Assembly (NCBI GenBank): GCA_964374105.1
Contig: CAYJXI010000001.1
Span: 199,743 to 263,742, forward strand
From: an uncultured Planctomycetales bacterium
GTDB lineage: Bacteria; Omnitrophota; Gorgyraeia; Zapsychrales; JANLHA01
Length of the DNA stretch: 64,000 bases
Direction of reading: 5' to 3'
Below are positions 3,001-53,008 of this stretch, piece after piece (position 1 is the stretch's first letter; every line of letters begins with the position of its first letter). The position numbers were made by a program, and so were the translations under genes. The notes below the pieces were generated by a model. That model made no database searches and had not been told where the DNA came from. It worked only from the letters and a program-made list of their open reading frames with translations.

Positions 3001-6000
3001 TCCCAAAGAAGTTGTAGCCGGGACAATTGAGGGAGTTCTTGTGGAAAGGTATCTGCGATCGATCCTTGTCATCTTTCCCGAAGAAATTCAAAAGAAAGTC
3101 AACCATCAATACCAATCTCTTCCCGGAGTGGTTCGGGAAGATTTGGTCAATAAATGGGTGACGATCCAAAATGAGGCTGTTCGGCTGACGGTTGAATTCC
3201 TGATCCCGGCTATGTCTCAGGATTTAAGAAGAATCCTGGATATGGCTTATCCAGCTGGAGCTAGCGAATTTATTAAATCTTATCTTGCCAGGAAATTAGC
3301 GCTATTTAATAAGAAGGAAGACTCAGCGGTTGTTACGGCACAATATTTTAAAGATGGGAGTCAAGAGTTTAAGAAGCAAGTTATTCAGATTGTTATTGGC
3401 CTGCTAGAAGAACAATTGGAGAAGGCCAGAGAAAAGACCAGTGCTTCCGCAGAGGCCGTTAAGACCGTTAAGGATATCTATATTCGAAAGATAGAAAGCG
3501 AATTAACGCCGCAGCTTGTTTCTGATATCAAAGGAGGAATCCTGAATCGCCTATTGCGTGAGAGACAGAGTGGTCTTGATCTTGAAAAGCAGAGAGAAAA
3601 GGAAAAACAAAGACAGGAAGAGCAGAAACGTCATCTGGAAGAACAAAAGAAAAAAGAAGAAGCTAAAAGAAAAGCAATGATCCAAGAACAGGTGAAAAGG
3701 GCCAAAGAAGACATCCAAAGAATCATTGAGCAAGGCCAAAGGGTTGTAGCCGATTTTATGGCCGGCCTGTTAAAGAAAAAAGATCAGCAAAAGCTTAAAG
3801 AAGAATCGCAAAAGAAACTCGAAGACCTTTCGACACAACTCATGAATTTGGCGCAGGGTGTGGTGATGGTTCAATTAAGCCAGGAAGTCCTCAATGCCAA
3901 TCAAGCTTTAAATAAGATCAGTGAGACATTAACCGCATTGGCGCAATTCCCCATTAAAAATATTTTAAGCGAAGATGATCTTTTAGGACTTCTTGAAATC
4001 GTTTCTTCTTACCAAGAAGCAACTCACCTAATTGATCAGGAAATTCAAAGACGGGAGGAATTGCAAAGAAAGGTAGAGGAACAAAAACAGCCTAGTGCAT
4101 TAGAAAAAGAACAGGTTGAAGAAGAAATTCCGCAGCTACCTTCTGAGAAGGCTTTAGGGCTTTCTGATCAGCTTGAGGGCCGATGGAAGAGACTGGTGCG
4201 GGAAGTAGAGGATGCCGAAGATCCCTCGATGAAAGGCAATGCTTTAAAACGACTTGAGCGCGAGATCAATCGGGCCAAAGAAAAGGCTAAACCCAAAGGG
4301 AAACGGACCTTTGTCAATACTAAAGAGCGAAAGAAGCCGCGAATTCCCGATGGAGTCGAAGAATTTTATTTAAGAGAAATACAAAAGAAAGGGAAATTCC
4401 CACCCGGCAGACAAGGCTTCCAGGCGCGCATTAAAGAAGAGAGTTCTTGGTTTAGAAGTGCGGCGAACATTTCCAAGGTCGAAGAACTACCCTTTGTTTT
4501 ATCCCAGCAAAAGATGTCAAGGATTTTTGTTACCATCGAGGAGAAAAATAGTCTTTTCAAAATCTCCCAGCGATTCCCCAGGACATTTTTAAGTGACGGT
4601 AAACTCGCTAGTTTATTAAAGGAAGCCCTCTCGGCTTTAGGAGTCATTGACATTAAGTTTGCTCACCGCTTAAAAGAATTCCTCCAAGCCAATCATTCTT
4701 TCAATTTGTTGACCATCAATCATACCTTCCACCTTTTCGAAAATTATGAGGATTATTATCTCATTGTAGTCAATTTTGGTCTGATTGATCTCTACCGAAA
4801 ACGGGCCATCCAGGCAAGTAACTTTGAAATCGCTCTCACTGTGGGTCTCGTCCATGAGCTTGGTCACTGGGCCTCCCCTGAGCTTGAAGAAAAACAAAGG
4901 ATCGACATTGATGTCCAACTAACCCGTCGGCTCATTGAAAGCAAAAGCAACTCCTATCTTACTTTCCGCAAAATAGCGCACCAATATATCAATCATTTGC
5001 TCAATCTTATTGAAGAAGAAGGTTATATCAAAGCCCTTGTTAAGGATTTAGAAGAAAAACCCGCCAGCAATTTGTTTGTTCCTGAAGCTGGTCAGGAAGT
5101 CAAACCACCTGTTACGGAAACGGCTACTAAGGCGGTACCTGCGGCTACTGAGTCCCAGGCTGAATCTGTGATCGTCCCCACTAGAAACGGCTTCATAACC
5201 TCTGAATCTCACATCTCCGATGTCATTCCTGCGAAAGCAGGAATCCAGCTTGAGGACAATTCTATTTTGGATTCCCGATTAAGGCATTCGGGAATGACAA
5301 AGAAAGGTTATGAACCCGGTTCTAAAGAAGCTGAAGCGTTGTTAAAGGAAGATTCTCATAAAGGCGCCGTCATCTTTGAACATAATGATCGTCAGGATGA
5401 TCTCGTTTCCTCAGCCGAACCGGTTTTAAGTCAACCCCCATCAACTGAAGTAACTGAAAAACCAACGATCGAAGAACCCGCTCTCTTTGACCTCATTATC
5501 ATCGTTGAACCCAATGTGGGATCAAAGCTGAATCAAAGGGAAGCAGAGAATCTGAAGATGGAGATTCTTGAAATCTACAAAGAAGAATTAAAAGAATTAA
5601 AGATTACGCATTTGCGAGTTGTCAAAGGAGAAGGCCGTTCTGTCAAACTAAGATCATTAAAGGAATTTGTGGAGATCGAGGTCTCGATAACCCATAAAGA
5701 CATAAAATCCTTAAACAAAATTAAAGAAGCTATCAGAGCATTATTGATGAGCCATCTTAAAGAAGAGTCATCAAGAAAACAATTGTTAGAAACAAAAGAG
5801 GTTTTAAATGAACCCATTGAGGTTACAGATTATGGGAATATCGATTTCGGTGGGACATTGGTTGAGGAAAATGAACATCTTCAAGAAATCATTCGGCGGC
5901 TCTATAAACAATACGGACCGATCTTAGAGAAGTTAAGTATCGAAGAAGTCAATATCATTTATGAAAAGCAACAAACCTTTGAAATCCAAGGGAAGAGATT

Positions 6001-21000: not shown

Positions 21001-24000
21001 CTTTCTCCATTTAATCGGCTCTTATGGCGGCCTGATGACTACGGCCGAAGCGGCAGGGTTTGATTTAATAACCTTGGCGGTTTCCTCTAATATGCCGTTT
21101 GCCATTTACCAATTAACCAGAAAGAAAGATGACTTAAGTTCACTGATGAAGGAGGAAGGCCGTGAGCCTCAGAAACTAAAAGAGATTATCCGGATAAAGC
21201 TTGAAAATTTGCCTCTCCCATCCGCTAAATTTATTCTTGAAAATTTAATCCTGAAATCCACGTATCAAGACCCAGAGATCAAGAACTATCTTTCGGCTCA
21301 GGCGCGAATGGCGCTTTTGGCCAAGGCCTTGGCGGTTTCCCTGAAAAGAAAGGATGCAAATGAGATGGCCGTTTACCTTGAATCTCTCCTTAAGGAATCT
21401 CGCCATTTGATCCTACCTTCTGCACTAATGTTTATCCGTTCTTATTTAACCGTGTATTATCTTAAACAACCGCTAAAGCTTGCCTTTGTGATTCCTGTTT
21501 ACGGCGGACAGAAGGCCTTCTTGGATTTTAAGGATGGCGGAGAGGGCTGGTTGAGGTTCAAGGTTGATCAGTTCTTTGTAGAATTGTTATCGGTCAATCC
21601 AAAGGTCAAGGGAAATTTCATCTTTGTCAATGACGGAGATGATTCAGCCAAGACCGGAAGAAAAACTAGTGATGTGATCCGCGACCTCCTTAAAGATCCT
21701 TTTTATGACAAGGTGCGTGGACAGATCTTTGTTCTCGATCTGCCGCAGGAGACCAAGGTTAAGATGAAAGGAAAGAAACATAGTGCGGTTGCGGCGGGAA
21801 TGAAGTTTGCCTTGGAAAGAGGAGTGGATATTGTCATGTACACCGACCCGGATCTGGCCAGTCATTTGGGATTGAGTGGACTCTTGGTTGATTCTTTGAT
21901 CAACCGCGGATTTGACATGGCGTTTGGTTCGATTGAAATGAAAGGTTCAATTGTTCCTATTCGTTCATTCAAACGCCGTGTTGGGACTCTTGCTTATAGT
22001 CTTTGGGTGAGGATTAATCTTATAAGATACATTCTTAAAGTGAAAGATACCCAAAGGTCTTTCAAGGCCTTTAAACGAGAGATATTAGAGAAGATTATGC
22101 CTATTAGGAAAATGAGTGCTGATCAAAATGGGATCATCCAGCTTAAGGATTATGATCCCGATTTCCATTATGATTACACCGGTGACACCGAATGGATGGG
22201 GCGCGTGAAGATTGTGGGAGGAGGTTTAGAAGAATTCCCGATCGTTTGGATTGATTCACCGCAAACCGCCCAAACAAGTCTAAAGAAAGATGCCTGGCCG
22301 ATGTTTAAGGCCCTAACAGGGCAGAGAAGATCTTTAAGGAATTTTGCCTTAAAGCATTCTGGATTACGATCAACAAATCACGACCCGCAAAACAAGGGCC
22401 GTAACGACAAGGCGTGGGTCTTAGAGGATTTCCGGGATGCTCCCAAGCTCGAGGTTCGGGATGAGAGAAGTCTAGGCTTCGATCCTTGGCGAGATTTGAT
22501 TAAGGAAGTGGATACTTCTTTATTGAAAGAAGCGATTGGTTTGATTCAGCACACTGATGAATTCCCAGGGCAAAAGAGTTTGGTGAATATCCTTAAAGAA
22601 CTCATGAACTTTAGGCGGATCTTTTTTGCTAAGAACCTGCCTGGGATGTTTAGGGCCGAGCGACTCAATGAGGGAGCATATTTGATTTTGATCGATCAAT
22701 CATTGCATTGGTTATTTGGCGGAGCGGACTCTCTGATTCGTATCCGCAGTCCTTCCCCCCGTCAGAGAAAAGCCCTCTTAGCTTTCCTTGCGGCCAAACT
22801 TCTGCATGAGGCCGCGGAAATCCTTATGTCGAATCATCCTAAAGTGCATTGGCATTTGGATGAAAAAGATCCCTCCCTCACTACAACCGAACAGGTTGCC
22901 TACTGGGTTGAGGTGATTTTCTTAAGCCGTATCCCCGCCTTCTGGTTTGATTTTAAGAAATTCCTTAATCCCACAACCGTCTCTCCCTTATTTGTTCTTT
23001 ATGAATCTGTTTTTAGTGGGGAAGAATCTTTAGGCCGTTCCCCGGATCAATCTCCCAAGCCGTTAAGGCAGTTCCTGGCTACTTTAGGTTATCTGGCACC
23101 TTTACAGACTAAACTCTCCCGGGAACTTTTCAAACATATCCTTCAGCAGTTCGATGTTAATCTAGCGGAATTTGAAAGGCAAGAGAATCTTCGGGATTTG
23201 ATTGAATCCACCGTTGGTATTGCCGCGGCGCATTTTGATGACAGTCCCATCGGACGGTTAGCAACTGGAGTAATGATCAGCCGGGATTTTCTTATGACCA
23301 GTCTTCATGTTGTTGAGGATGAACAGGTACGGTTGCAGTCCTTTTTCAAGATTTATATGTTTGTCCCGAGGTCAAATGGCAACAGCCTTTTAAGTAAGAA
23401 ACCCAAGATGTCTGAAGCGAAAGTCGTGGCTATGCATCTCAACCAGGATTTGATGTTATTGAAGATCGATCCAGCCTCGATCCCGTCAGGGATTGTCTTA
23501 AGAGAAGTTAAGCTGGGGTATCAGGAGAGCTTGAAGGGAGGAATGCCGTTAATCATTTCCACCCTTCGTTCAGATGAAAAAGCGATTGATGAGAAGGCAC
23601 CGAGAATTCAGATCACCTCCACTTTGATTCCTCCTGTCGAAGAGGACCTCATTTATATGAAATTTGCTTCATGGAAAGGAGTGAGTGGCTCGCCCGTTGC
23701 TGAACGAGGTGGGCGCTTGGTGGGGATTTATATCGCGACTGAAAAATTAGGCATGAAAGATAAGGGTGTCGCGCATTCCATTGGGGCTGTGCGCAGCATG
23801 ATCGAGACATTGAAGATTCCACTGTCGCAGAGTCACGGCCGTTCAGCAGATCATAAAAGTGACAGTCACTCCCGCCATGGCGGGATGACTGTCACCTTTA
23901 GAGAAAAAATTAAGAAATGGTTAGTGAAGGCAATCGAATTTCAGGATAATATAATTCGAACATCACGAATTCCTATCTTTAAGTTTTTAAGGCTGCTATC

Positions 24001-27000
24001 TTTTGTCCTCAGGAGTTTGGGGAGACAGACGTTCAACCTGCCGTGGCTGGTTGAGTGGTTCTCATCCTGGCGTTTTCTTGGGATGGGAAAGATAGCGGCC
24101 TTTGTATTCAAAGAAAAAGGTGATCCCGCCAAGGCGGGATCACCTTTCCCCGCTGAGATATCAAAAGAGCAGCATGGATTCCTTGGGAATTTGGATCAAG
24201 ACCACTTAAGGAGTCTTCAAAGAATCGTTGAGTCGAATCGTGGTTTTGAATCCGTTAAGGAATTTAATCGTATCCTAGGTTCCTATTATGGGATTAAAGT
24301 CGAATTCTATTATTTCACAGACCCCTTCTCACGTTTCCCACCGACGCCCTTTGTGGCGGCTTTCCATCGCCAAACTCAACTGAGAATCTTTTTCTCCTCA
24401 GTTCATTTCTTGAATCAATTCAAAGTTCATTTTAGGAATCAGTTGTCTTCTGTTTTACAGTTGATTACAACCCATGAATATATGGAAGTGGTCCAAAGGA
24501 AATCTCACCAAATGGTTGATAAACAAACCAGCCAACTTTATAAAGACAGAGAGCAAGGCACCTTAATTCTGGAAAAATTAGACGAATTCTTTGGGACTAT
24601 GTACCTTGTCAATGCGTTTCTTGATTTGGAGAAATTGACGAGTCCTTATTGGAATGTCCGCAAGAAGACGCAAAGGCTGGCAAAAAAGGGCGGCCTTCAA
24701 GGGGCGGTTATCCCGGCAACAATGCTCATTCGCCATCAAAATAAGGATGGCCCTGAGGCCAAGGTAGTGGATGAAATGTTCCGTCAGGGTTGGCTTAAAT
24801 TTGTTCATTTAAGTGAAGAGGTTGTTTTATCCCACAATCCCAGGTATACCTATCAAGCTGTTTATTTGATTGATATCCCAGAGGAAAAGATGACAAGCCG
24901 TGATGTTCCCCTCAAAAGCCTTAAAGAATATCTTAAATTGGGAGAAGAATACCTTGGAGAAGAATCTTCTTTGGAGGAAAGAAGAGGCCGTTCGAAAGAT
25001 CGTTCCCGCCCCCTTCCCGGCAAAGACATGCCTTCAGCGGATGACATCAAAAAAGAGCTCCTGAGAGTTTTAAAACCTTATAAAAATGTCATTAACGAGC
25101 TGCCCCTCTTGAAGCCCAATAGCCCTGCGATGATCCAAGCATGGGCATTTTTAAAGAGAGATAAAGATCATCCCACTTTGGCACCTGCGCTTGAAACCTT
25201 TGCCAGAGAAGGCCGTATCCGGGCCGGGCCATTTGAAGGCTTCTTGGCTACAGTTTATCGAGTGAAGAAAGGAGGAGAATACATCCTTCTTTCCACCGCC
25301 TATCCGGAATTCAATTCCACCATCCAGAGAGCAGCCTCTCTTATTCATGAAATTGGTGCAGTCAGCCTATTTCATCTAGATCATCCAATGAATGAAAATA
25401 GAGAAAGGACCTATTTGACCGAGAAGGTCAGTGAGCTGATTTATGAACTTCAGTATCGCTCCACCGATGAGATGTTCGCTGACTTGGCGAATCTGCGTCA
25501 TTATTTTTCCGAGGGACATCTCGAGCAATTGATCCATTTAATCTTAATCCAAAAGGGTCTCCCTCAGAAAACAATAGCTTATATCATTGGGATTATCTCA
25601 AGTTTAGCCGAAGCTAATAGGAAGATATTTACACCGAAAAATTTAAAGGCGGTGCTGGAATTGCTGGCAGAGAAAGAAAAACATCCCATGATGGATCAAT
25701 TGATTCTATTGTTTAAGGATGCCAATCCACCGGCTTTCACAATCGAGAATCTGGCCTTTGTCATTGACTTCATATTGACTGTAATTGAATTCCAAGAAAA
25801 AATTGTCGAGGTTATTTACATTTTTAAAAAGATCAATCCTCTTTCATTTGACACAACGAATTTTAATACTATTCTTCCCCTGGCCGAGGAGGACCGGACA
25901 GAGGTGCGGGAAACCATGTTACGCGTGGCTAGGATCTTTAGAGAGGCGAATCCTTCCGTGTTTACTGCGGCTGGATTGTCCCAGCAGTTTGTCCGATTAA
26001 GGACAGAAACAGAAATGAAGTTTCTCATCAGTCGACTAAGGCTAGTGGCTATTTATTTTGAGGCGGATCAGGGATTAGCACAAGAAAAAATCTGGAATGA
26101 TTTATGGGATCTGCCAGTCATCTTGGAATATGATGATTATTTGGTTGCTTTCTATGACACGTTGGCCTCACTGATCAAAGCCAATCATACCATCGTTAGC
26201 GAACCTCATCTTGAAAGATCCATTGGCAGCTGGATCAATGATTTTACGGATCCGGGAGGGATGTTAACGGGTGGTGATGTAAAAGTGATCGCGGCAAGAC
26301 TTAGACTGTTGCATGTCTTTTTACGCGCTAACAAGACCTTGGCTACCGAATCTCGATTCGCCCGGGTGATGATTTATTTATCGCAGGGGCTCAGTTTTGA
26401 TCCTTTGATCCTTCGGACCAGTTTTGAAATCTTAAAGACGTACGCAGAAATAAATCCTGATCCTAAGTTTTTCTCAGAAGATCATTTGAGCATTGTCATT
26501 AAAAGTTTGGTTGAAGAAGTACCCAAACCGGGAGAATTCGAAAAGCCAAAAAATCCCCACCGAGTTGATATTGTCAAAATATTTAAAAACATCAACCCGC
26601 AATCATTTTCTTATAAAAATTTATTGGCAGTGATTTACTTTTTTGCTCAATCGGATGAACTGGTACGACAACAGGCCAGTCAGATATTGGACATCTTTAT
26701 TGAGGTGAATCATCATATTATAGACGATTCGATCTTACGGGCCTTGGTGGTGGTTAATTTGATCGCTGAGGAATTGTATTCCGAAGCTATTCAGGCAACC
26801 CAAAGAGTCAGGGGGCTACTAGGAAGGGAGCCTTTTGATATTCAAGATTATGATCTCATCGTAAGAAATTATCTGCCGTTCCTGGAAACCTGGGAAGAGA
26901 AAATCCGTGCGTATCAACGCCTTAAGGCAGGGGAAATAGAAGGATTTGATTTTAAGGCCTGGCGGGAATTTATATTAGACCTTACGAAAGAACAGGGGCT

Positions 27001-30000
27001 TGTCTTTGTTTGGCTTTTGGTGTGGGATATGTTGGAATTAAGAGAAAGAACTGAGATTCTGGATGATTTGCCTGTCCGAATTGATTCTTCGGCAGATCGT
27101 TGGGACATCGAACTGATATTCGGAAGAAAAGGGATCTTTGATGCTTTAAGCTCATTGGAAGTCCATGATCGGCGCAATGCACAGACAGCTGTTTTAAACT
27201 ATTTCGGCAAAATCAAATGGATTCAGAAACGCTTGAGCCGTGATCCGCGGATGAGTTTCTTATGGGAACTGGATGAGCCATCCTTAAGGGACTTGATTAC
27301 GATTATTAAAATTACCCATACCAATAGCACCTTGGTCTTTAATGCCATGACCATGGCGGAAGTTTTACCTGAGGAAATTAGAAGTCTCATTAAGGTCATT
27401 CCGTTTAATAACACTTTAACTGCGGTGATCAACCTTTTCGGTGAATATGCCAATTTCATCATGGATTTGCGCAGTAACGGCAAACTCAAATTTTTAATCG
27501 AAATGCTGACCTTTGTTGGTTTAGAGAAGAAACAATACTCGCTCACTCAAATTGAAGGGATCTTGGGCTATCTTGCTGAACACAGATCCAAAGTTCTGAG
27601 TTGGAGTAAAAAAGATTTTCAAGATTTTGAACTGGATTGGTATTCCTATTCAAAGGCCATCCCGATCTTCCATTCTCGCCTGTTTGAGTATTTTATTAAG
27701 TATCAAGCTCAGGAGCACCTGATTCAGCAAATGAGTCAGGATGTCCAGGAGGAATTATTGGGCATCGCTTGGGGCAAATTTAAAGGATTAAAGGGAAATT
27801 TGCGAAAGTATGGGATGACCGATAGGGATGAATTTGTTTTGCTGCAAAAATACATCCCAATCAAGGGATACGGGCCTACCATTTATGCGGATGTCTTTCA
27901 GAAGTTGACCGAGGCTGTTGAAACAAGAAAGATAACAAGAGAGGATGAACCAGAATCTTATCTCTTAGATCAAATCCTTTTGGTGAGAGGAGAACGGGAG
28001 ATCAGACATCTTAAGGGATCAGAAAAATTGAATGATCAATGGATGGATCAGATGCTGAAACTTTTTGCTGAGCCGCCAGCGGAAAGTTTGTCTTTATCAG
28101 AGCGTATAAGTCAATATCTTAAGGAGGGTCTCTGGTCTAGAGAGCTAATGGAGCAGTCGGCGATCATGTGGCTGTTAGCAAAACCCACCTACCAAGAACG
28201 GTTGTCGAAATTAAAGAACAGATTAGAACAATTTGATCGTTCTGATATGACTTTGCAGATCGAAAGCTATCTACAATTGATGGAGGATATCCAAGTTTTC
28301 CTCTCGGATACCTGGGAAAATGATTTAAGGGATGCCCGCAGTCAACTCCTCAAAGAAGTGGTGGAAAAAGAAAGAAAGGCGGGTTTAATTAACTTATCAA
28401 CGGGTTTAGGAAAAATTGCTGTTGTCAAAATGCCCCGGAAGAAACTGAAAGCGGTCTTTGCAAAGATTGCATTGCCCTTTGATACCCTTTCTTTAAGTCA
28501 AACATGGGCCCAGGAATTAGGTCTAACGTTGTGTGATAGGAATTCTCTGAAGCGGCTGAAGGAAGAATGGAAAGTCAAAATGATTGAGTACATTATTTCA
28601 ATCTTTAAGAAAGAATCCAAAGGGGAGGTGGCCGAGGAGACTAAGGCAGCAATTAATGAAGCTTTTGATCTTATGATTTCAAAGGAAGAAGAACGAAGAA
28701 GCAAAAATGAGTTAACCAATGAAGAAATCCAAAAGATAACTTTAGATTTGGAAAGAAATTTACGGGAGATATTTAAATCCAAAGTTCTGTTATTGGAAGA
28801 AGAGACGCAGAAATTTGAGACTATCACACTTCCGGGGATGGGGAATACGGTGGTGATGGGACTCTTTGGGGATCCCTTGAATTTGATGTATTGTCAGGGA
28901 GAATGTACTTTCCGCGATTGGCCAAGGGCGATCCTTGATCAAAGATACTTTTATATGAAGTTATTGATTAAAGAGCCCGGGGTGGAAAGTGGAGGGCGTG
29001 TCTTAGGGGGAGCGCAAGTACAATTTTTAAAAGAGACAATCAGAGAAAGAAAAGTGAAAAGGATGCCCCGGGGTTGGGCGATTTTGAGTTTACCAGGGAT
29101 CAATATGGACGAAGGGATCGATAAGTATGGGATCGGAAAGCGCCAAGGGATAAGGTTCCTGTTAGAATTTGCCCAGCGGTTAGCCGAGGAAACCGGACTC
29201 CAAGGAGCAGTCATCCCCATCGATATTTTGATCCGCCACCAAAATTCTGAAGGACCCGAGGCAAAGGTGGTTGAAGAACTGATTCAAAAGGGGTGGTTGA
29301 AACCGGTCAAGTTGAGTTCAACCGTGGAACTAGCCCCTAAAACAGAATTCAATAATCAGTATACTTACGAAGATGTGTATCTAATAGATATTCCTAAAAA
29401 CGAGATGATGACAAAGGAGACACCTTTTTCAAATCTCAAGGAATATCTGGAAAGGGAGGAACAAACACCGTCCCTTGTTGCCAATCTTCCCGGGATCGGG
29501 GTGTGGATGCGGGTCTTATTGGCAGGGGGAATCTTGCCGCATGAGTTAGGACACCTCATCGTTGGGCCTCAAAAGGGTAGAAGGTTAGATTACGGCTTAA
29601 GGAGAATTCTGAAAGGCCTTTTCTATGCTATGCCCTGGCCAACCCGAGGGCCGCCGGCCTTGGTTGGTCTGGCGGTGAATCTCTTCTTGGCGGTTGTTTT
29701 AGGGCTTTTGATCTGGTCAGGTTTATTGAACTTTGGGTTTACATCGAATTCTTCGGCCTTTCTCTTCTACCTCTTTATTTCCAGCCTTATCGTATTTCTT
29801 TTGGAAATCCTGCTCACCCCATTTGCGGAAAGCTTAAAGATAAGCCGATTTGCGGATTTAAGACAGATGAAAGGTGATCCCGCCATGGCGGGATCACCTT
29901 TTTATATCCCAGGGCCGCTGCGAGTGTTCAACCGACCGTGGCTTCCTGCACCACACAGGGTGCAGGACCATGAACCCAATTCCGTACCACATAGGGTACG

Positions 30001-33000
30001 GGACGGTGAACCCTACGTGGTTCACCGTGTGGTTCATGGGGTTGAGCTCTTCCCGCCTCAGGCGGGAGCAGCGGCCCTGTATATATTTAAAGGAAGAAAT
30101 ATTATAGAGAAAGACAGTATAAGTATAACATCTGCCATTGAGGGGATGCCAAGGCCTAAGTCCAGTGATCAAAGCAGGCATCCCCTTGATTTAAAGGATA
30201 TGTCATTCCCGCGCCCGCCCGAGGCGGGTCCGCCTCTGGCGGAAAAGCAGAGATCCAGAAGGTACTTGTTTCCAAAATCCCGGATTCCTTCTTACGCAGG
30301 AATGATAAAGGTTGATAACGGGCCGCTACAGAACGTTCTTCACCTGGATCCGTGGCTGGGTGAGAGCACTTCGTCTGCGCTCAGCGCAGACGAACCACTT
30401 GCACCACCACAGGAAGGTAGCATCTCTGCTTTGAGGAGAGGCAGAATGCACCGAACACTTCCTATTAAGGAAGAACCTGTGGTGAGGGGTGTAGCGGCCC
30501 TACTCATAAAAAACTTTGTCCATCCACACGGTGGACAAATCTGCCAAAACTGTGTCGCTTTACTCCTTAAATCTGATATTGCTCAGGAACTTATTCAACA
30601 GTTGCGGGAAATCTCTGGTGCCATCCGCTGGATCAATGGCCATCCGTATTTTAAGATCGGCCCGATGGTTAAGATCCTTGAGGGTTTTGTTCGAAAAGGT
30701 CTCATGGCACAATCTGAGCTCGAGGCGATTTATGTTGAAGAAGACGAGCACGGTTACCACGCCACGCACATGAAGACAAGCACGCAACTCATCCACGCCC
30801 CCCAATACGCCTGGATTGGGGCAAAGAAGAAGGCTAAGGAGGATGAGGCACTCTTTGATTTTAATGAATTCCTGAAGTTAAAGGGCTGGAGGGCTCGTAA
30901 GGCCTTCAGGAAGCATTCCCAATTTTTAAACAACACTGAGAGGTTTGCCTTAGGGGCAAGAGACTTTATTTTGAGATTAAGGACGATCAGAGTGCCTTAC
31001 GAAGTCCAGTGGTGGGTTCTGGAATTTTTGGCACGATCAACCGGCTTTTGGAGTCTAAAGCAAATAGAAGCTTTGGTTCAAATCATTTTTAGTCGACAGG
31101 TTGATGATGAAGTCTTGAATTTATTATCTCGTTTTAACAATGTGAGAGGGATTCAACATGTCATTGGGAGGCTAGCGAAAGAATATCATCTGCGGCGCTC
31201 GGCAAGCATAGAACTTTATGTAGCGAAATATTTAGAGGATAAATATAAGGCCACGATTTTGGCTTTTAATGAAGAGATATTGGATAACAATAAAAAACCT
31301 ATTGCGGAATTTGATGTCATCTTTAAGCCTTATCGGCGAAAAACAATTGTCATCGCAGAGGTTTTCAGTTTCTTGCTTCAACCCGATCAAAGTTTTGTAT
31401 ATGAACGCACGATAGAAAAATTTGAAGAGAAGATCAGCAGGATAACTGATCCAAGAAACGATGATTGGATGATTTTAGAAAAGCTTAAATTTAGGGATAT
31501 CAAAATTTTATTGGTGTTTGAGCCAAGTCAAAAGCAATATTACGAAAGAGATTTATTTGGGGTGATCCAAGATGCATTGCAACAGAGCAGTTCAAAAAGA
31601 AAATTGGAAACGCTCTTTATTTCATTTCCGACATTAATCATTCAAAAAGAAGAAACATACGATCATGTGAGTTATACCAAACAGAAAGCGACTGATCGTA
31701 GTGTCTATTACGGTGTTTATTCTTACCGACCCTTCCATCAACAAACCACCTTAGAACAAGAAGGGAAAATGAGAAGAAACATCATCTGGTTGCGGTCAAA
31801 GATCTTAAAAGCGCTTATGAAACAAAAGGCTAAGGAAAGGAAGGAGCAGAAACTTAAGGAGAGACAAACATGCGCCAATTGTTTGACTAATCAACTCCAT
31901 CAAATGGGTTTGAGAGAAAAGTCCACAGATCTTATTCGACATTTAAGATCCAAGCTCGGGAGTATAAAAAGATTTCCTCATTTAAGTAATCCGGTTTTTA
32001 ATGCCAAAATCGTTAATGAATTTTTGCCTGAGGATATCACAAAAAAGATTTATCTTAAATATTTAGATCGAATTGATCAAGAGATCATTTATCACGTCAG
32101 TCAAATTCCCACCGCTATTACGCTCTGGGATCTGCGTCACGAAATTCATTTTTGGGTAGGGGCGAAGGTAAAAGAGGAAGAAAAAGGGGACAGTCCCCAA
32201 AGAAAAAGGGGACAGTCCCCAATTATCCAGTTGGATTTGTTCGATTTCATTGCTGAGAGCGCACTTAAGGCAAAAGAGGAAAAAGAATCACAAGTAGCAC
32301 AACAACCCAAAGGAGACTTTGTGTCAGCAGTCTTTAGCCAGATTGTTCCCCTTATTAAGAATAATCCACGGATTTCCATCATCCAGATTAATTATAAAAT
32401 TCAACCCTTTTATGATCCCCTCAGCGGGTGTGACCGATGCTTCGTAGAAGGAACCGTTGTTCATGAAAAGAATAGCCAACAGGAGAGAATAGGTTGGTTT
32501 GATTTTTATGTTTATCCTCAGGAGAAGATTACCATCGAACATTATTTCCCCATTGGAGTCCCAGGTTCTAAGACTTGGGAGGAATATCGTAACGTTGGTG
32601 TCAGTCAGACATTCCTCTTTTGGCTTTCGACCTTCGCTAAAACCATTGATGTTGATTTAATTACCATTAACTCCCAATGGCTGGTGGACATGTATATTTT
32701 TGGCAAATACTTTGCGGATCGGATTGGCATCCGTGATCCTAAAGAGCCAAAGATAAATTATTACGAACTTAAAGGTGGCGAACATAAAGGCATTTATGCT
32801 AACGAAAAGATAGGGGTGCTGACGGTTCATGATGTCGAAACCGTGCAAAGAATCGGTGCCGTAAAACTTAAATTTGATGCTTTAAAGGATGAATACGAAG
32901 TATCAGAGAAAATACTTGGGAGTATTCTGGAGGGAACAAAATTAACAATCATTAAGGGATTTGTTTATAAGGACAACGGACTTTTAGGATTCATCCACGA

Positions 33001-36000
33001 CCCCGCTGGGAATTCCATCTTTGAGGGGAAGCCCAGATTCCCGGAGGATATAAGGCCAGAGGCCTATGTCTTCAGCATTCCTCAGGAAGTGGTAAGAATG
33101 CTTAAACCTGTTTACGATGAATCGGAAAAGCAGAAAGAAGCAGGCGGAAACTTATCTCCCAAAGGAAACAGGGATGGCGCCCATTTTTCAAACGAATGGG
33201 AAAATTGTTTAACCCGCTGGCTTAACGCAAGGGAATTCAAGGAAGTGGCCGAGGAATTGGTCAAAGGACTTAAAGAAATTCCAGGGGCCATCATGCGGCT
33301 TAAACGCTACCAGGACCCCTTATTTAATCTTAAAGCCATCAAGGAAGCGTTGGAACAAATCATTCCTGGTTTCTCTGAACAGATTTACTTGAAAAAGATT
33401 GAAGAAGTGATGACTGACGACACTTGGCAAGTGGTTTATCATGTGGTTTCTCCAAAGGAATCCTTGAGCTTGGGTGAGGCAGATGTTATGACCAATGGCG
33501 CCAGGGCGACTTTACTTTCCGAAATCCGCGACCAAAACGCCTGGGTGGGGGCACAAGAAACAATAGATAAATCGCTTAAATCATTAAAACTGCAAAGAGC
33601 GATTTGGGATGCGAGAAAACATCCTTTGGATGCAACGATTTTGCTCAAAGCCGAAGAACTTTTGTTTGCATTCCAAAAAGAGTTTGGGGAAACTCATTTG
33701 AGTGAAAGGGGAAAGTTGCTGAGCCAGATCAGAGCTGGCCGATATCCTCATCATTCCCGCATCATCCGAAGATTTCGCTGGAAACTTCAAGGGAAAGACC
33801 GAAAGATAGAGGAATCCTTACGATTTTTCCATCGCGGCCGTGAGTTGTGGGGAGAAGAGGTTATTCGTGATGAAGATCGGGCGGACTTCCTTATTGCCGA
33901 GGCTAACTTTAAGGCTTTTAAAAGAGGGAGTTTGACACGCAAAGAACTGGCCTACGCTTTAAGCATATTAGGAAGCGGGAGAGAGGGGAAGTTGAAGCTG
34001 AAACTGCGAGATTTTGTGGTGAGTGCTCTGAGTTTAATTCCTGAGGATCCGCATGCGCTGATCTCAGAAACGGCTTTAAAATTACTTGCTCAATTTCGTG
34101 ACAGCAAGATTCAGGTTGTCTCCTCTGACAAAGGGACATATAGTGTTACGCCCTTTTTTAAACAAGCCCTCCAGTTTCATAACTTAAGTTCTCGGTGTCG
34201 ATATTTATTGCAGCCTTATTGGGAACCAGGCCGCGGCTTGATTCTTTATTGGATCTCTAATAAAGAAACGATAGGCTACGATATGACTCCTTATCGTTCG
34301 GCCAGGCCGTCATCGAAATTGAAAGTTATTCCTGCCCATGTTGTTGTTCGTGCCCAAGATTTAAAAACTGCTCGATGCAATCCTGGCCAGCTCTTAACAG
34401 ACCTGGTAAGAGAAGTTATCCCGATTGATCCTCTTAATCCCGATGAAGCAAGCTTAAAGGCATTGGAAGAATCTCTTAAAGATCGGCGCGATCAACCGCT
34501 AAATATTTTTGTTAAAGGAGGTTCTCATACGGTTAAGCCATGGGAAGATAACAATAAATATATCTCCTTCCAGCACCTGAAACCCAACAGCTCCTATACC
34601 ATTATGCCTTACTGGGAACCAAAAAAAGGTTTAAGGACCTTCTGGGTACGGGAGGGAGAAGTAGCTGTTTATGATCTTATTTTGTATCAACGTTTCCGAC
34701 CTGACAACTCACGGGAGTTAATCAGTGCTAAGAAAGAACGCGAGGATAAGCTCCCTGCAGCTGATCCGCAGCGGTTGAAGGTTTCCTTACTTTGCCGCAA
34801 TTGTTTCATCCTGGCCTTGCGGGAACTAGGATGGGATTATCAAAGATTGGAATCTTTTCTGGAGGCTTTAACAGAAGAAGAAAAACTTAAGGATTCCCCC
34901 AACAGTAAAACTCCTTTGATCAAGGCCCAGGCCATTGTCCGCATTTTGGCAGATGAGTTTGAGACAATCGCAAAGGAAATTTTTATGAGGGGGAGCGGGA
35001 CAGATGTGCAAGGGCGTAAAATTTATCATACTTTCTTATCTGAAAAAGGCACACGGGAAGCAGAAGCGTTATTAAACGTTATCCTCGATTCCAGCATGTG
35101 GGTAGGGGCGAAGGCTAATGAGGAAGAAAAAGGGGACAGTCCCCATCCGGGGCATCCGGGGACAGTCCCCACCGATCCCTTAGAAAAAGGACAATATCTG
35201 GTTATCGCCATGGAAACGGAAAGGTTGTCGGAATTAAGTGACCGGATGCGGGAAAGGGCGCTTTCTAAGGAGGGCCGAAAAATTAAAAGAAAAGGGCTTA
35301 ATGAAATTATCGCCTACTACGAGGAACGCAAAGCCGCTTACCAAGAGCTGGAAGAATTTATGAACAAGATCATTGCAATCGAGGACCCGTTTGACATTGA
35401 TTTTGAAAGACTGTTTGAATTGTATGTCCAGATCATTTCCTTTGCCCATATTCGGGCTGGATTCCGTCGGCGCGTGATCGGACCTTTAAGGTCACTGCTT
35501 TTTATGAAATTGCCCGGCTCCATAGCCCTTTTTGTACAACGGTGGATGTCGTTTATTTCCACCGGTCTTTCTGACATCACAACGCACCTCAGGGATGTGG
35601 AGTATAAGGAATTGTTATTTGTCATTGAACTTAATCCCAAGGCGAGAAAGATTATCCTAAGCCAAGAGAGTCCGCTGGTGCTCAAACAATTATCGCAAAG
35701 GGCAAAACCGGTTTATCAGAGTCTGGAGGATTTTGCCTTTCGCTATAAAATTGAACGTAACCAGAATGATGATATGACCAACCCCCTGCCTTTAGAAAAA
35801 CTGTTAAGCAATATCCGAAAAGACCTTGAATCCGGGGAATCCCGCAACCCGATCCCCCTATTGTTTAGCCGGACACCGCAGGGATATGCCTTTGAGTTTG
35901 AGCAGATCGGAAAATGGGTCAGACAGAAAGCGCCTCGTTTTGATGTAGAGGTTTTCCAAAAGATCATGATGATTTCTTGGGAGATGCCGGCCCAGCTCGA

Positions 36001-39000
36001 TAGGGAGCGCCATTGGCAGCATCGTTATCAGAACCAGTTACAGGGAATACTGTCATCGATAGAAAAGCGATTGAAGAAGGCCCGTTTGTTGAGTCAAAGA
36101 CAGAGCGTTTATGACCTTTCTGCGGAGGAATTGCTTAATCTGATTGAGAGGTACCGCCACTTAGACCCCCACCGCGCTAAGGCGGGCCTGCCTGCCGGAC
36201 AGGCAGGGAATCAATTGCCAAAAACAGAGCCGGAGCGGGAAGAGGCGATCCAGCAGGAAATTAGCGGCAATCGACCCCTATTTCTTGAACAGAGTCAATA
36301 CGTTCTCGAGGCAAATAAGGAAGCGAAAGAATTGGTGGGAGAGAAAGATCGGGATATTGTACGATCTTTAGAGCAGATGTCTTCTATGGAAATTCGCGCC
36401 GGGCCGATGCCGAATTTGTGGAGTGTTGTTCGGGAAGTGTCGCTTGTGAAGCGTGAAGCGTTAGGAGAAAAACGAGATACGAGTCCCGCCTCACGGGAGA
36501 CGAGATATGTCCTCCACCTCGATCGATCCCTCTTTGATTCCGCTAACCGCCATGAACTTCTTCTCACCCTCATCCACGAAGCAGGTGTCCTTCTGGGCCG
36601 AAGCGATGAAGACAATGAAAAATTTGCCCAGAAGGTTTTGGGTGATTTTGGTATAGAGAAAATTCATTTGCATTCATTAAAAGATATTGGAAAAGTTGAC
36701 CAATTGGTCAAAAAGATTAAAGAGCTCATTCAAAGTGGCTACTGGAAAAATGTTTTTGAGCTTTTAATGGAACATCTTGGCAAAGATCCAGAAATTGATT
36801 CAAGGTTGATAAGGGATGCTATTGAGTATGCATTCCGCGAGACTGCCTTGAAGTTATATGGGAATTTTATTCCTACCAAATTTATTCAGGCAGCAGGGGG
36901 TTTTCTGTTGAGGCTTACTCGGAAGGCTACAAAAGAAAAAAGGTATGATGTCTTGAGGGCTATCCTGGAACATTATGGGAATTCTTGGTCTAACAAAGAT
37001 TCTGGTGTGAAAAGATTGATTCTCCAAGAAGAGCCAGCCCTGTGGCCACTCCTTTATATTTTCGATATGGTAATTAAAATTTTAAAGAAAGATGATCCAA
37101 CATCTCACCCAGAGATCTTCGAGCATGTTCTTCCTTTCATTATCGATGTATTTCCACCCAAGACACTTTATTGGATTAAAACTCGACGGATTACTAGAGC
37201 ACCAGGATTCATAACATCTGATGATCGATTTGAGTCGAAGGAGAGTCCCTTTGTGCAAAAAATGGTTGAATTGTTTAGTCTGCTTGCTGAAAAGTATCCC
37301 GCTCATCCTTTATTACATTTGGCTTTAGAGAAATACATTGGTCTGCGAGAAAAGGTACAGGAGCAATTACAAAGAAAAAGTAGACTGATGGGGCCGTTTC
37401 GAGCGTTAGCTACATTGTTAGGTTTTAGGAGAGAGGGAAAGTCTTTGGAAATTCAAAGGTCTTTCACACTAACACCTGAAATGCAATCTCTTCTTCCTCG
37501 GATTGAATTGAAACCAGAAGAGATGAATTTAATATTAGATCAGAAAAGAGACATCGAGGAAACAGCGGTAACATTTTTGAAAACATGGGATGATTTTGTT
37601 ACGGCCTTTCAAGTCCTTTATAAGGCTCTACGTGATGAGACCTTGCGGATTTCTTATGATTTTGACGTGGAGGGCCGGCATACCCAAGGAGGGAGAATCA
37701 TTGAGAAAGCCTATCACGAAGGATGGATTCATGATACAGGTTTCGAGGCCTATATTCACCTTCCGGTCGGGATTCAGATACCTTTGAAAAAATGGTCAAG
37801 TATATCTGATTATAATTGGTGGGATGAGTATCATAAGCCTCTACGATATTATTTGAATTATTCTTTAGATATGGAAAGAATTCAGGAATTATTCCAAGGG
37901 CTCACATTCTCTGGTCTAAAGATAGGGGATCGTCTGGCCGAAGACGAAATTTGGGATGAGGGAATTATATGGGCTATGCTGGACAATAAGTTTAATGAAC
38001 AGTTAAATACAGTTCGCACTTTGAGAGAAGAATTAATTCGGTTAGCTATCAAACTCGAAGCCGTCAGTACAGGTCAGACAGAGGAAGAAATACGGAATCA
38101 ATACGATGGGAGTGCGTTGGTTAGAAAATGGCTTAAGAAATTTGGGATTCATGTTCGCGAGGCTAATAATCTTGATTTTAAGAAATTGACTTTTGATAAA
38201 TCTGCACAAACTGAAGAATCTTCAAAAGGTGATGAACAATCTGAGGATGATCGTGAATTCACCGATCCCCACCGCGCCAAGGCGGATAACAATCTGCCGA
38301 AAGATCCGGTTGAGCGCGAAGAGGCGATTCAGAAGGAAATCGCCGGTACTCAGAAATTGACGGGCTCCCAAAGGCAATACGTACTCAACGCTATCTGGCA
38401 AGCTCTGAAACTGGCCAAAGAAGATCAAGAAATCGTCCGCTCGTTTGAAGAGATGGTCAAAATGGAAATCCGCGCCGGGCCGTTTAGGTATATTTGGGGC
38501 ACCATTCGTACATTGTACAGCGTACTTCGTACGTCGAATGAACCGGGAACTTTACGAAGTACGATGGACGAAGTACGATGGACGTTATTCCTCGATCAAT
38601 CCCTCCTTGATCCTGTCAATTATCGCGAGCTTTTAATCACTCTCATTCATGAAGCCGGAGTCCTTCTGGGAAGAAGTGATGAAGATAACGAAAAATTCGC
38701 GCAACAAGTCATCCCCATTTTAAGCCAACCGGCCCAAGAACGGATCCTTGAGATGGTTCGAAAGTACTTCCTCTATCGAAAACCATTGAAGGATGAAGAA
38801 ATTATCCAACTTATCGGGTTTATTTCAGCTCAAATTCAGGTTCCTGTTGAAGAGCATGGCAAAGCTGTTCGTGAAATGCTGGCAGAGATAGTCAGGCATG
38901 ATCTTTTTGAACAAAACAGGTTCAATAGGATTTTAGAATTGGCAGGAATTTGGTACGAGCATTTTTATGTATTTTCAACTGAAGCGCAGGAGCCGAGAAC

Positions 39001-45727: not shown

Positions 45728-46228
45728 GCCCATGACCCGCACTTTGACCAAATCCGCAAAAATGCCTTTAATGGTGATGATCCCCAAAGATCACAAACCC
45801 AATCTCCCAACGACCCCCACCGCGCGAAGGAGGGCGACCGTGTTGAGACAGACCATCCTTTAAGACCAATCAGCCAGCTGGGCGCCGTTTTGTGGCGATT
45901 TTATCAGCCTCGGGTGGCATGGGGATTTTTAAGAATTGCCTTTTCAACGACCGTGGCGAATTACCGGCACCTGCGCCATCACGGTATTCGCGGGGCGCCA
46001 CTGGGACGAATCCAAGCCGCACTCCGCGCGCCCTTCTTCAAAACCGCCGAACGTATTGACGGCCTGCCGCGGTGGAATATCGACCGCCATCTCCTCCCCG
46101 AAGATATCCAGCGCCTCGTTGACATCCACGAATCGCAACCCTGCTGCCGCTTGGGTAACCGCGAGATGGCGATAACCATTCAGAAAAGGGAAAGCAGACA
46201 ACGATCTAAAGAAAATTCAGCAGATGTC
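45728..46228 (+). other. Junction between the two giant ORFs. The single in-frame TAG (45725-45727) is followed by 54 stop-free in-frame codons that include a DPHRAKEGDR motif copy (45812-45841), then a ~400-bp GC-rich (~60%) block, before AT-rich ORF2 proper (an in-frame ATG is at 46229).
   Basis: Frame arithmetic: positions 2, 45725, 45812 and 45890 are all 2 mod 3. The GC-rich block shows ORFs on both strands in the provided track. Confidence 0.6.
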
Positions 46229-52798: not shown

Positions 52799-53008
52799 AA
52801 AGTGGGGATTCTGTGTTGAACACGGAATGACAGTGGGTGTTTAATAAATTGTCACTCCTGTCTCCCATTTGTTATTTTTTAAGTTTTTAAGAATTGTTTG
52901 TTCAAATATTCCTCTTCCATTTTCACAACCGTTGGCCGGCCGTAAGGCAGGGTAAAAGTCGTAACCCGCGCTGGGTTTAAGACCATGAACCCTATGCGGT
53001 TTACGGGA

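Follow-up and report, generated by a model that had tools for sequence, protein, structure and literature searches.

REP/BIME elements of enterobacteria and pseudomonads are GC-rich palindromes of 20-40 nt that form mosaic arrays, typically lie 3' of genes, and have a terminator-like shape; by definition they lie outside genes, and RAYT transposases are associated with them. Rickettsia palindromic elements (RPEs) are single insertions of ~100-150 bp with a conserved peptide per family. These palindromic repeats, of which a genome carries several families, are found in frame in protein genes and are translated, the host protein remaining intact (PMC10969869). In pneumococci, the small repeat families BOX, RUP and SPRITE are bunched and inserted into each other, and SPRITE elements are shaped like rho-independent terminators (PMC10969869). 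The giant genes of Omnitrophota exceed 10,000 codons and are characterized by many transmembrane segments, scattered enzyme domains, internal paralogous modules, and few homologues (bioRxiv 10.1101/2023.11.21.568195; 10.64898/2026.06.07.730766); the words hairpin, terminator, antisense, intergenic and stop codon occur in neither of these two reports.

Here we describe a palindrome cluster of ~670 bp (29870-30540) that lies in frame inside a 15,241-codon open reading frame (ORF) of an uncultured bacterium; positions refer to the window, that is, the whole 64-kb stretch of DNA that was analysed. The ORF encodes methyltransferase, trypsin-like and M50-like peptidase, and Fis-type helix-turn-helix domains, together with many transmembrane segments. 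By examining folding, repeat copies, reading frames and homologues, we hypothesize, with modest confidence, that this is a REP/BIME- or MITE-type cluster of DNA palindromes at a module junction, tolerated in frame and read as a linker.

Six closed palindromic units in a chain (U0-U5; Table 1) make up the cluster, with U1 and U4 together accounting for more than half of it. On the + strand the 671 nt fold at -317 kcal/mol, against -212 +/- 6.5 for shuffled sequences (z = -16), and the - strand also folds better than its shuffles (z = -12). No other stretch within the window is as structured: U1 (z = -10.9) and U4 (z = -9.1) rank as the top two among its 200-nt bins, U0 alone folds as DNA at -16.7 kcal/mol (z = -7.6), and five perfect hairpins of at least 8 bp are found in the cluster where 0.09 would be expected. 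The two strands have nearly the same fold energy (-317.3 and -316.6 kcal/mol), 93% of the pairs are Watson-Crick, and G-U pairs make up 6.6% of the cluster fold, half of the 12.4% in background folds; near-pure Watson-Crick pairing, equal strand stability, and the lack of an Rfam match at the gathering threshold indicate DNA palindromes and not a strand-specific RNA. Nearly all stems are perfect, which fits recent insertion and selection on structure equally well. A sequence-only reading of this DNA had described a terminator-like palindrome with a T-run at the start, a 170-bp unit closed by 12-bp terminal inverted repeats with three 6-nt-loop hairpins inside, and more hairpins downstream, all of which are present at the positions given there.

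Table 1. Palindromic units of the cluster, flanking modules, and repeat copies elsewhere in the window.
Feature	Position	Strand	Description
Second U3-type copy	5222..5298		Different frame from U3: VIPAKAGIQ...DSRLRHSGMT
Second U0 copy	24116..24147		Identical stems, CAAG loop, unrelated flanks
Upstream protein module B	29462..29872	+	Transmembrane-rich; PHELGH...MPWPTRGPPA...LTPFAE...ADLRQMK; last stretch with detectable homologues
U0	29870..29901		32-nt perfect palindrome AAAGGTGATCCCGCC/GGCGGGATCACCTTT; 14-bp stem, 4-nt CATG loop; then TTTTTATAT
U1	29910..30079		170 bp; perfect 12-bp arms CAGGGCCGCTGC/GCAGCGGCCCTG; nested helices and four hairpins inside
U1 hairpins, 6-nt loops	29944-29967; 29981-30002; 30003-30028		Stems of 9 bp; 7 bp plus one G-T; 10 bp
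U1 fourth hairpin	30051..30067		TCCCGCC-TCA-GGCGGGA
Spacer	30080..30140		AT-rich, without palindromes, TATATATTTAAAGGAAGAAATATTATAGAG...; resembles intergenic DNA
U2	30141..30186		Perfect 10-bp stem AGGGGATGCC/GGCATCCCCT; 26-nt loop
U3	30203..30305		Copy of ~75-nt GTCATTCC...GGAATGA(C/T) palindromic element (also GTCATTCC...GGAATGAC)
U4	30320..30500		181 bp; closed by 11-bp arms GGGCCGCTACA/TGTAGCGGCCC
U5	30515..30539		Small hairpin TTTGTCCA-N9-TGGACAAA; last structured unit before next module (ICQNC...)
Downstream module	30542..30830	+	First copy of repeated CxNC...W[VI]GAK module; coding score normal again
Hairpin 3' of mutL	52966..53003	-	ACC-GCATAG-GGT top; GGGTTCATGGTC common to U1; true intergenic DNA

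Components of the cluster are members of families of small repeats dispersed in this genome. The second U0 copy is read in the same frame as U0 (KGDPAKAGSPF and KGDPAMAGSPF, respectively), and in an unrelated MAG (L005) two convergent genes flank a near-identical palindrome. Without its 30-nt insertion, U3 matches 5218-5304 at 70% identity (nhmmer E = 7e-17); as the element is read in different frames at the two sites, its peptide is not conserved. The hairpin top ACC-RCRYAG-GGT, found on three of the four U1 hairpins, has four exact copies against 0.54 expected, one of them in the intergenic hairpin 3' of mutL, which shows a weak match to U1 (E = 0.39). U1 and U4 have the core GGGCCGCTRC in common; their interiors differ and only the closing stem is shared. 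The earlier proposal of a repeat element stands for U0, U3 and the hairpin top, but the 170-bp unit did not prove to be a MITE: the search for further copies recovered the U0 palindrome at 24116 and no second copy of U1 (nor of U4) in ~70 kb of this organism's sequence, no target-site duplication is evident at the units, and a scan for the U1 arm pattern in metagenome and viral contigs gave, among the matches listed, only chance ones in GC-rich DNA. No homologues of the cluster appear among the matches listed from plasmid, phage, viral and metagenome collections, and the window contains no transposase or RAYT gene.

Palindromic elements enter the giant gene by in-frame insertion, including nesting in the loops of earlier hairpins. 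Alignment of paralogous module copies shows the 21-nt hairpin CCTGCCTGCCGGACAGGCAGG, which has a twin at 6691, as a clean in-frame insertion in one of five, and module copy 3 carries ~60 nt of additional palindromic sequence. The insertion in U3 (30214-30243), consisting of two CCGCC-loop-GGCGG hairpins, is nested in the loop of that unit's first hairpin and is again clean and in frame by alignment. Across the giant ORF there are 21 perfect hairpins (8.0 +/- 2.7 expected), which are absent from ordinary genes nearby, and the DPHRAKAG motif corresponds to a CCGCGCCAAGGCGG hairpin that has degenerated, older copies having decayed to ordinary coding sequence.

The frame joining the two modules is kept free of stops across the cluster. 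No stop occurs in the ORF frame, whereas the remaining two + frames have 10 and 15 and the three - frames have 5, 8 and 8, and the ORF frame stays open in just one of 20,000 dinucleotide shuffles; over the whole ORF, the off-frames hold 934-1126 stops. An antisense VapBC pair within the ORF has no TTA, CTA or TCA among 230 codons (P = 6.5e-5), a codon usage bent because the + frame of the giant ORF is kept open. Judged by its open frame, the cluster is probably translated, and the product is probably a proline-rich, disordered, floppy linker. The peptide quoted in the sequence-only reading is indeed the in-frame translation and differs in composition from the remainder of the protein, proline making up 13.4% of it against 4.1%; the ORFs claimed there for both strands exist (77 and 95 aa) but are trivial, with no Pfam match. 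The coding score is below zero across 30065-30660 and average over U1, and no relatives of the cluster peptide were found among 5.8 billion protein clusters. AlphaFold predicts helices for module B (pLDDT 50-75) and no secondary structure for the insert (pLDDT 25-43), the latter a run with no alignment and weak evidence.

The earlier view of palindromic DNA of a non-coding type, tolerated in frame in a giant ORF and possibly serving as a linker, is supported by these results. The cluster would have originated not as protein-coding sequence but as DNA palindromes placed exactly between two protein modules, and would be tolerated because the frame remains open. Ribosomes would read through it to produce a linker of ~220 residues rich in Pro, Arg, Ser and His, probably disordered, with an incidental sequence; selection would then act on uninterrupted translation and not on the peptide, in order to reach the 15 kb of downstream gene or to avoid polarity. 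The hairpins may be mainly a by-product of palindromic DNA that is selfish or neutral, with the likely side effect that the terminator-shaped U0 and the later stems would fold only while transcription runs ahead of translation.

A gene fusion is possible, if rather doubtful, as another origin of the junction: module B would have ended a separate gene with U0 as its terminator, the AT-rich stretch and hairpins would be a spacer or the 5' region of the next gene, and loss of a stop codon would have welded two genes and their spacer, the palindromes being resident intergenic hairpins and not later insertions. This account overlaps with a palindrome cluster tolerated in frame, because REP clusters normally reside in such spacers. 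Distant protein homology ends exactly ahead of the terminator-shaped hairpin, at K9957 (nt 29872), the final codon before U0, where all phmmer and blastp alignments of homologues (P0019, P0023, P0024, P0028, P0044; 41-46% identity) stop; the homologues, however, continue for 165-227 residues after module B, which is therefore not C-terminal, and this tail is missing after the cluster. The shared end point and the missing tail also speak for a palindrome cluster at a module junction. Fusion would suit the AT-rich, non-palindromic stretch and the sustained negative coding score, but no fossil ribosome-binding site and start codon are visible ahead of the downstream module, and it is very unlikely that 650 nt of spacer would be open in the required frame had selection not acted beforehand. 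Other traits of the gene point towards fusion: the next ORF (2,302 codons) is in the same frame, parted from the giant ORF by one TAG codon and 163 nt of stop-free spacer with which another DPHRAKxG module begins; the + frame is open across the antisense VapBC operon, which sits between two tandem paralogous modules; and giant Omnitrophota proteins have been described as many-enzyme tilings (bioRxiv 10.64898/2026.06.07.730766). Against resident hairpins, U0 and U3 recur elsewhere as dispersed repeats and their flanks are unrelated.

We think it unlikely that the stems are a selected cis-acting nucleic-acid structure, kept as a translation-dependent terminator or attenuator aborting uncoupled transcription of the 45-kb gene, a pause site after the membrane module, a site at which the mRNA is stabilised or processed, or a terminator of antisense transcription. 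U0 has the canonical stem and T-run and both its copies directly follow hydrophobic segments, yet the T-run is not conserved between them (TTTTTAT at 29870, TTTCCCC at 24116). Elsewhere in the ORF, A-runs precede GGGGACAGTCCCC hairpins, which thus have a terminator shape on the minus strand, but terminator-like sites overall show no enrichment (24 against 20.8 +/- 5.9). Stems that are near-perfect although the peptide is unconstrained, and the enrichment of perfect hairpins in the giant ORF over its ordinary neighbours, are consistent with a function; the symmetry between strands and the decay of older copies (DPHRAKAG) argue against one.

It is very improbable that here the giant ORF is no genuine translation unit, or that the segment is misassembled, with an accidental open frame: the region is rich in repeats, but 15,241 open codons cannot arise by chance given the stops in the off-frames, the shuffles and the VapBC codon usage speak against accident, and assembly chimeras would not look like these palindromes, which are small and belong to several distinct families. 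A strand-specific non-coding RNA gene embedded in the ORF (sRNA, ribozyme, riboswitch-like or antisense sRNA), to which two units of ~170-180 nt with very low fold energy and a long closing stem each might point, is extremely unlikely and already weakly refuted by equally stable strands, scarce G-U pairs, Rfam hits at E <= 10 that are only noise, the lack of a tRNA or tmRNA, the absence of a consensus promoter from the spacer at 30080-30140 and the cluster, and the lack of homologous sequence among the matches listed. The cis-acting RNA and the antisense sRNA of the sequence-only reading likewise gain no support from the strand energies, the G-U pairs or Rfam.

As a DNA palindrome cluster read in frame, the locus combines traits of several known systems and hints at how giant genes take up foreign DNA. 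U0 resembles an intrinsic (rho-independent) terminator in its GC-rich 11-14-bp stem, 4-nt loop and five T, but it is part of a frame that is probably translated, in which ribosomes should normally keep it from folding, and its copy at 24116 is without a T-run on the + strand. Like REP/BIME, the cluster consists of short GC-rich palindromes repeated at the DNA level, with a U0 relative between convergent genes and a U1-type hairpin 3' of mutL; unlike them, it lies within an ORF, where it is predicted to be translated, and no RAYT is seen in the window. Different small repeat families are bunched and nested in one another as in BOX/RUP/SPRITE, although the pneumococcal clusters are in intergenic regions and pseudogenes and this one is in frame in an intact gene. 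With RPEs it shares palindromic repeat DNA of several families in frame in a coding gene; by contrast, it has no sequence similarity to RPEs, its units are 21-181 bp long and, stacked and nested, form a 670-bp cluster, one element is read in different frames, and the host is not Rickettsia but an uncultured bacterium. The ORF itself resembles the giant Omnitrophota genes in size class, transmembrane segments, enzyme mosaic, paralogous modules, and few homologues.

The palindrome cluster, a pile of about 670 bp at window positions 29870-30540, lies in frame inside a giant open reading frame (ORF) on the plus strand and is made up of six closed palindromic units, U0 to U5. The features that the sequence-only reading had listed were all found where it had placed them. 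Its expectation that the segment would fold better than shuffled controls also held on both strands: the 671 nt at the cluster fold at -317 kcal/mol, where dinucleotide shuffles reach -212 +/- 6.5 (z = -16), and the minus strand gives z = -12. The two most structured bins of the whole window are 29901-30100 (-6.9 SD) and 30301-30500 (-4.9 SD). The units bounded by inverted repeats (U1, U3 and U4) measure 103-181 bp; the arms of U1 and U4 have a GGGCCGCTRC core in common, and the interior of U4 is unrelated to that of U1. Tandem Repeats Finder (TRF) detected no tandem repeats, and a scan of the AT-rich spacer for a consensus promoter found none. The small ORFs noticed earlier on both strands do exist, none with a Pfam match. 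The earlier placement of the segment in frame is borne out: the frame of the giant ORF crosses the cluster without a stop, the other five frames contain 5-15 stops each, and a single one of 20,000 dinucleotide shuffles of the cluster was left open.

Palindromic units of the cluster and the antisense toxin-antitoxin genes (window coordinates)
Feature	Position	Strand	Description
U0	29870-29901		32-nt perfect palindrome, then TTTTTATAT
U1	29910-30079		170 bp, perfect 12-bp arms; nested helices and four hairpins; fold z = -10.9
Spacer after U1			61 nt, AT-rich, non-palindromic
U2	30141-30186		
U3	30203-30305		inverted repeats of 11 bp with one mismatch
U4	30320-30500		11-bp arms; fold z = -9.1
U5	30515-30539		
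PIN domain	18419-18907	minus	E = 1.9e-12
AF2212-like antitoxin	18908-19108	minus	E = 5e-8

The position of the cluster within the protein was established by running full phmmer on aa 9500-10699 against 1.84 billion representatives; full phmmer yields 47 relatives, with E-values down to 1e-35. Distant relatives were found for three stretches: module A (about aa 9090-9830), module B (aa 9821-9957) and module C (aa 10262-10601). All module-B alignments end at K9957, the codon preceding U0, and aa 9958-10261 lie outside every phmmer alignment. Three homologues continue past module B with a tail of 165-227 residues and then end; a profile of this tail had no match 3' of the cluster or in any of the cluster's six frames, and the idea that the cluster interrupts a conserved domain was therefore rejected. 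Given the stop of homology at K9957 and the missing tail, the cluster marks a junction between modules. With aa 9800-10400, the insert by itself and aa 9580-9957 as queries, a word-indexed protein search gave no hit; since it missed relatives that the full phmmer search finds (three queries came back empty), such negatives are weak for the flanks and unreliable for this protein. Metagenome contigs searched with the joined flanks yielded no related locus. The encoded peptide is rich in proline (13.4% vs 4.1%), and a 3-periodic Markov coding score is negative over 30065-30660. A single-sequence AlphaFold model gives a weak indication that the peptide may be unstructured; the predicted linker includes the stretches VFNRPWLPAPHR, YLFPK and GVAALLIK.

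Several components of the cluster are dispersed repeats. A second copy of U0 at 24116-24147 has identical stems, a loop differing by one base, unrelated flanks, and a T-run on the minus strand only; a degenerate relative lies at 23860-23897. The stretch 23860-24150, 3' of the trypsin-like domain, looks like a second, smaller intergenic-like spacer within the ORF, with a terminator-like hairpin (23860-23897), about 220 nt of low coding score, and then the U0 copy. A search for U0 in GTDB genomes (a set without the source genome) gave two matches only, both unrelated. At 3874-3902 of JBKPCS010000048.1, a contig of an unrelated metagenome-assembled genome (MAG), GGTGATCCCGCCAAGGCGGGATCACC matches the U0 copy at 24116 base for base over its 26-nt core, and sits in a 130-nt gap between convergent genes, the place expected of a bidirectional terminator. 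U3 is a copy of an element of about 75 nt also present at 5222-5298 (70% overall identity; nhmmer E = 7e-17). The ends of the two are almost identical (ATGTCATTCCYGCGAAAGCAG...GGAATGAYAAAG) and their frames differ (VIPAKAGIQ vs SFPRPPEAG), so that no peptide is conserved. The three 6-nt-loop hairpins of U1 all carry the top ACC-RCRYAG-GGT. Beyond U1 the window has just one exact copy of this top, in true intergenic DNA directly 3' of mutL, where GGGTTCATGGTC is in common with U1; these four exact copies compare with 0.54 expected with one mismatch permitted. Shorter motifs recur as well: eight CCGCC-loop-GGCGG hairpins in the giant ORF and, within the window, five occurrences of GGGACAGTCCC and two of CCTGCCTG-N5-CAGGCAGG (36187-36207 and 6691-6711). 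The repeat character proposed earlier stands for U0 and U3, which recur in the window; U1, like U4, has no further copy in the roughly 70 kb comprising the window and one additional locus.

Outside this DNA, the arm pattern GGGCCGCTRC...GYAGCGGCCC has at least 120 matches in metagenome contigs and at least 14 in viral contigs; among the matches listed, the median contig GC is 0.66 and none resembles the unit interior, and we therefore regard them as chance or unrelated short hairpins. Searches of plasmids and phages with blastn gave no match. GGGGACAGTCCCC hairpins stand in tandem pairs behind A-runs at 32177-32222 and 35123-35172, right after the ends of two copies of the repeated W[VI]GAK protein module; they translate as EEKGDSP, and on the minus strand have the shape of an intrinsic terminator. 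A further palindromic block at 40142-40291 is unique to copy 3 of the DPHRAKAG module and includes ACATAAAAAGGGACAGTCCCTTTTTATGT (13-bp stem) and the repeats AGGTCAAAGGTCAAAGGTCATAGGTCA / CTATGAGCTATGACCTATCAGCTATGAGCT; its coding score is the lowest in the ORF, and its structure score among the ORF's strongest.

Paralogous modules of the giant protein record palindromes entering in frame. Five copies of the DPHRAKxG module align cleanly, and copy 1 has exactly 21 extra nt, CCTGCCTGCCGGACAGGCAGG (36187-36207), a hairpin with an 8-bp stem spanning seven codons that is missing from the four other copies and has its twin at 6691-6711. Copy 3 carries about 60 nt of additional palindromic sequence. 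Relative to the copy at 5222, U3 has an additional 30 nt, a pair of CCGCC-loop-GGCGG hairpins that sit inside the loop of U3's first hairpin. The DPHRAKAG motif is itself a decayed CCGCGCCAAGGCGG hairpin, which shows that palindrome copies wear down with age into ordinary coding sequence. The giant ORF has 21 perfect hairpins of at least 8 bp where 8.0 +/- 2.7 are expected, and the rest of the window has none.

The giant ORF is a single open frame at nt 2-45727 of the plus strand (15,241 codons), whose product has many hydrophobic segments, internal paralogous modules and only scattered Pfam domains: a Fis-type helix-turn-helix, a methyltransferase, a trypsin-like peptidase and a weak M50 peptidase. 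This architecture resembles that of Omnitrophota giant genes (bioRxiv 10.1101/2023.11.21.568195; 10.64898/2026.06.07.730766); neither paper mentions hairpins, terminators, antisense genes or stop codons. Ordinary genes adjoin it (mutS, mutL, and genes for a TPR protein and a radical-SAM protein), and proteins identical to these neighbours are present in MAG GCA_947085705.1 and two Logan assemblies. The exact matches to MutS and a 448-aa protein lie on a 22.6-kb contig of GCA_947085705.1 and on short Logan contigs, which stop short of the cluster region. An exact-protein look-up had no record for the PIN protein, the antitoxin, a 95-aa antisense ORF or a 2,302-aa ORF. At 45725-45889, one TAG closes the giant ORF, whose frame is shared by the ORF that follows (2,302 codons as listed); the 163-nt spacer after the TAG contains no further stop, and a DPHRAKEG module starts there. 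This one stop codon is all that keeps the two ORFs from being a continuous frame of about 17,600 codons.

Inside the giant ORF and antisense to it lies a complete VapBC-like toxin-antitoxin pair (18419-19108, minus strand), with an AAGGAG ribosome-binding site and codons aligned to the plus frame. Codons TTA, CTA and TCA are absent from its 230 codons, as compared with 4.1% in neighbouring genes (P = 6.5e-5), and the plus frame across the pair has a negative coding score; the stretch looks like dual-use DNA selected to keep the giant ORF open. The pair is bracketed by two tandem paralogous transmembrane modules, each preceded by a copy of the direct repeat GGCGGCCCCCGCCAAGGCGGGGCAGGCCGCTGGCCGTGGATG (17903-17945 and 19268-19310; read as GGPRQGGAGRWPWM), and each copy ends in ATG, followed by a plausible N-terminus (MKKFYNFF...). 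Two independent statistical signs, from the cluster (P about 5e-5) and from the VapBC pair (P about 6e-5), indicate that an unbroken reading frame is selected as such, even across non-coding or foreign DNA. Selection appears to keep the giant ORF open through DNA that is plainly not its own coding sequence, as exemplified by the palindrome cluster, the antisense VapBC operon, and the stop-free spacer with its single TAG.

We consider it somewhat probable that the segment is a REP/BIME- or MITE-like palindrome cluster at a module junction, translated as an incidental disordered linker. The cluster would have persisted because the joining frame remained open, and the open frame would be the part under selection, for which codon usage in the antisense VapBC pair provides independent support. 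Such selection may act on continuous ribosome coverage of the 45-kb message, rather than on covalent linkage of the modules. A less likely reading, which overlaps with the palindrome-cluster reading, is that the segment is a fossil intergenic spacer left by a gene fusion; the lone TAG and stop-free spacer before the next ORF, in the same frame, speak for it. That the cluster is a selected cis-acting structure within the gene seems doubtful: near-perfect stems would fit, but the T-run differs between the U0 copies and terminator-like sites show no overall enrichment. An artefact is very improbable.

A strand-specific non-coding RNA gene embedded in the ORF is the least credible account. A functional RNA of this kind should accept G-U pairs and differ between its two strands; in the cluster, Watson-Crick pairs account for 93% of those predicted and G-U pairs for 6.6% (vs 12.4% when random coding stretches from the same gene are folded), and the strand energies are near-equal (-317.3 vs -316.6 kcal/mol). 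The structured RNA suggested from sequence inspection matches no known family: Rfam 15 has no match at the gathering threshold anywhere in the window; at E <= 10 there is only noise (best in 29700-30700, mir-789, E = 0.72), and ARAGORN detects no tRNA or tmRNA. Watson-Crick pairing, strand symmetry, and the lack of Rfam, tRNA or tmRNA matches together argue for DNA palindromes rather than RNA.

How genes with tens of thousands of codons arise, and whether they are truly read as single units, are questions for the field as a whole. The marks of growth on this segment are concrete: palindromes inserted in frame, elements nested in one another, and a lone stop before the next module. With them the growth of giant genes becomes testable. 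Speculatively, and with little confidence, we suggest that this lineage enlarges and remodels its giant genes through read-through capture, taking in adjacent genes, spacers and mobile palindromes, the junction clusters being active and not passengers. If so, the clusters could be sites of module insertion or shuffling, or translation-dependent terminators policing full-length expression of the 45-kb message. Functional hairpins would represent a new kind of intragenic checkpoint; if the hairpins are not functional, the 'selfish DNA in coding genes' of Rickettsia would reach into a lineage far removed from it and take in entire clusters of elements.

Among known systems, two resemblances were dropped because defining features are lacking: to integron attC sites (GTTCAAC at 29926 and GTTGAGC at 30041 agree by eye with the degenerate R'' (RYYYAAC) and R' (GTTRRRY) boxes, and about one such fit is expected by chance) and to single-strand origins of rolling-circle replication (RCR). 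No integrase, transposase or RAYT (Y1 transposase) was found within the window. U0 has the shape of an intrinsic terminator, a GC-rich stem-loop with a U-run, and covariance models place the segment in no Rfam family. Like MITEs, U1, U4 and U3 are short, have terminal inverted repeats and lack a transposase or any Pfam-matched ORF. Perfect 12-bp inverted repeats fit the MITE-like nature proposed for the 170-bp unit, a candidate mobile element with no second copy in the roughly 70 kb covered. To the left of U1 stands ...TTATATCC, and to its right TATATATT...; the TATAT there belongs to an extended imperfect inverted repeat instead of forming a clean direct repeat against the arms, and no target-site duplication is evident at U4. 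Short GC-rich imperfect palindromes (about 20-40 nt), repeated and clustered in mosaics, are the hallmark of REP/BIME elements and are found here (within this window); unlike those extragenic elements, all copies but one, the U1-type hairpin 3' of mutL, lie inside the 15,241-codon ORF, stop-free and in frame. Rickettsia palindromic elements are known to insert in frame into genes, and REP/BIME or BOX/RUP/SPRITE clusters to consist of elements inserted into one another (PMC10969869). The cluster shares with the Rickettsia elements the in-frame insertion of a palindrome into an otherwise intact coding sequence, but not membership of their sequence family with its conserved peptide: the encoded peptide has no homologue, and the frames of U3 differ. 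Rickettsia palindromic elements and REP/BIME or BOX/RUP/SPRITE clusters are its closest parallels in behaviour; what is distinctive here is that stacked, nested palindromic repeats lie in frame within a giant gene and are predicted to be translated.
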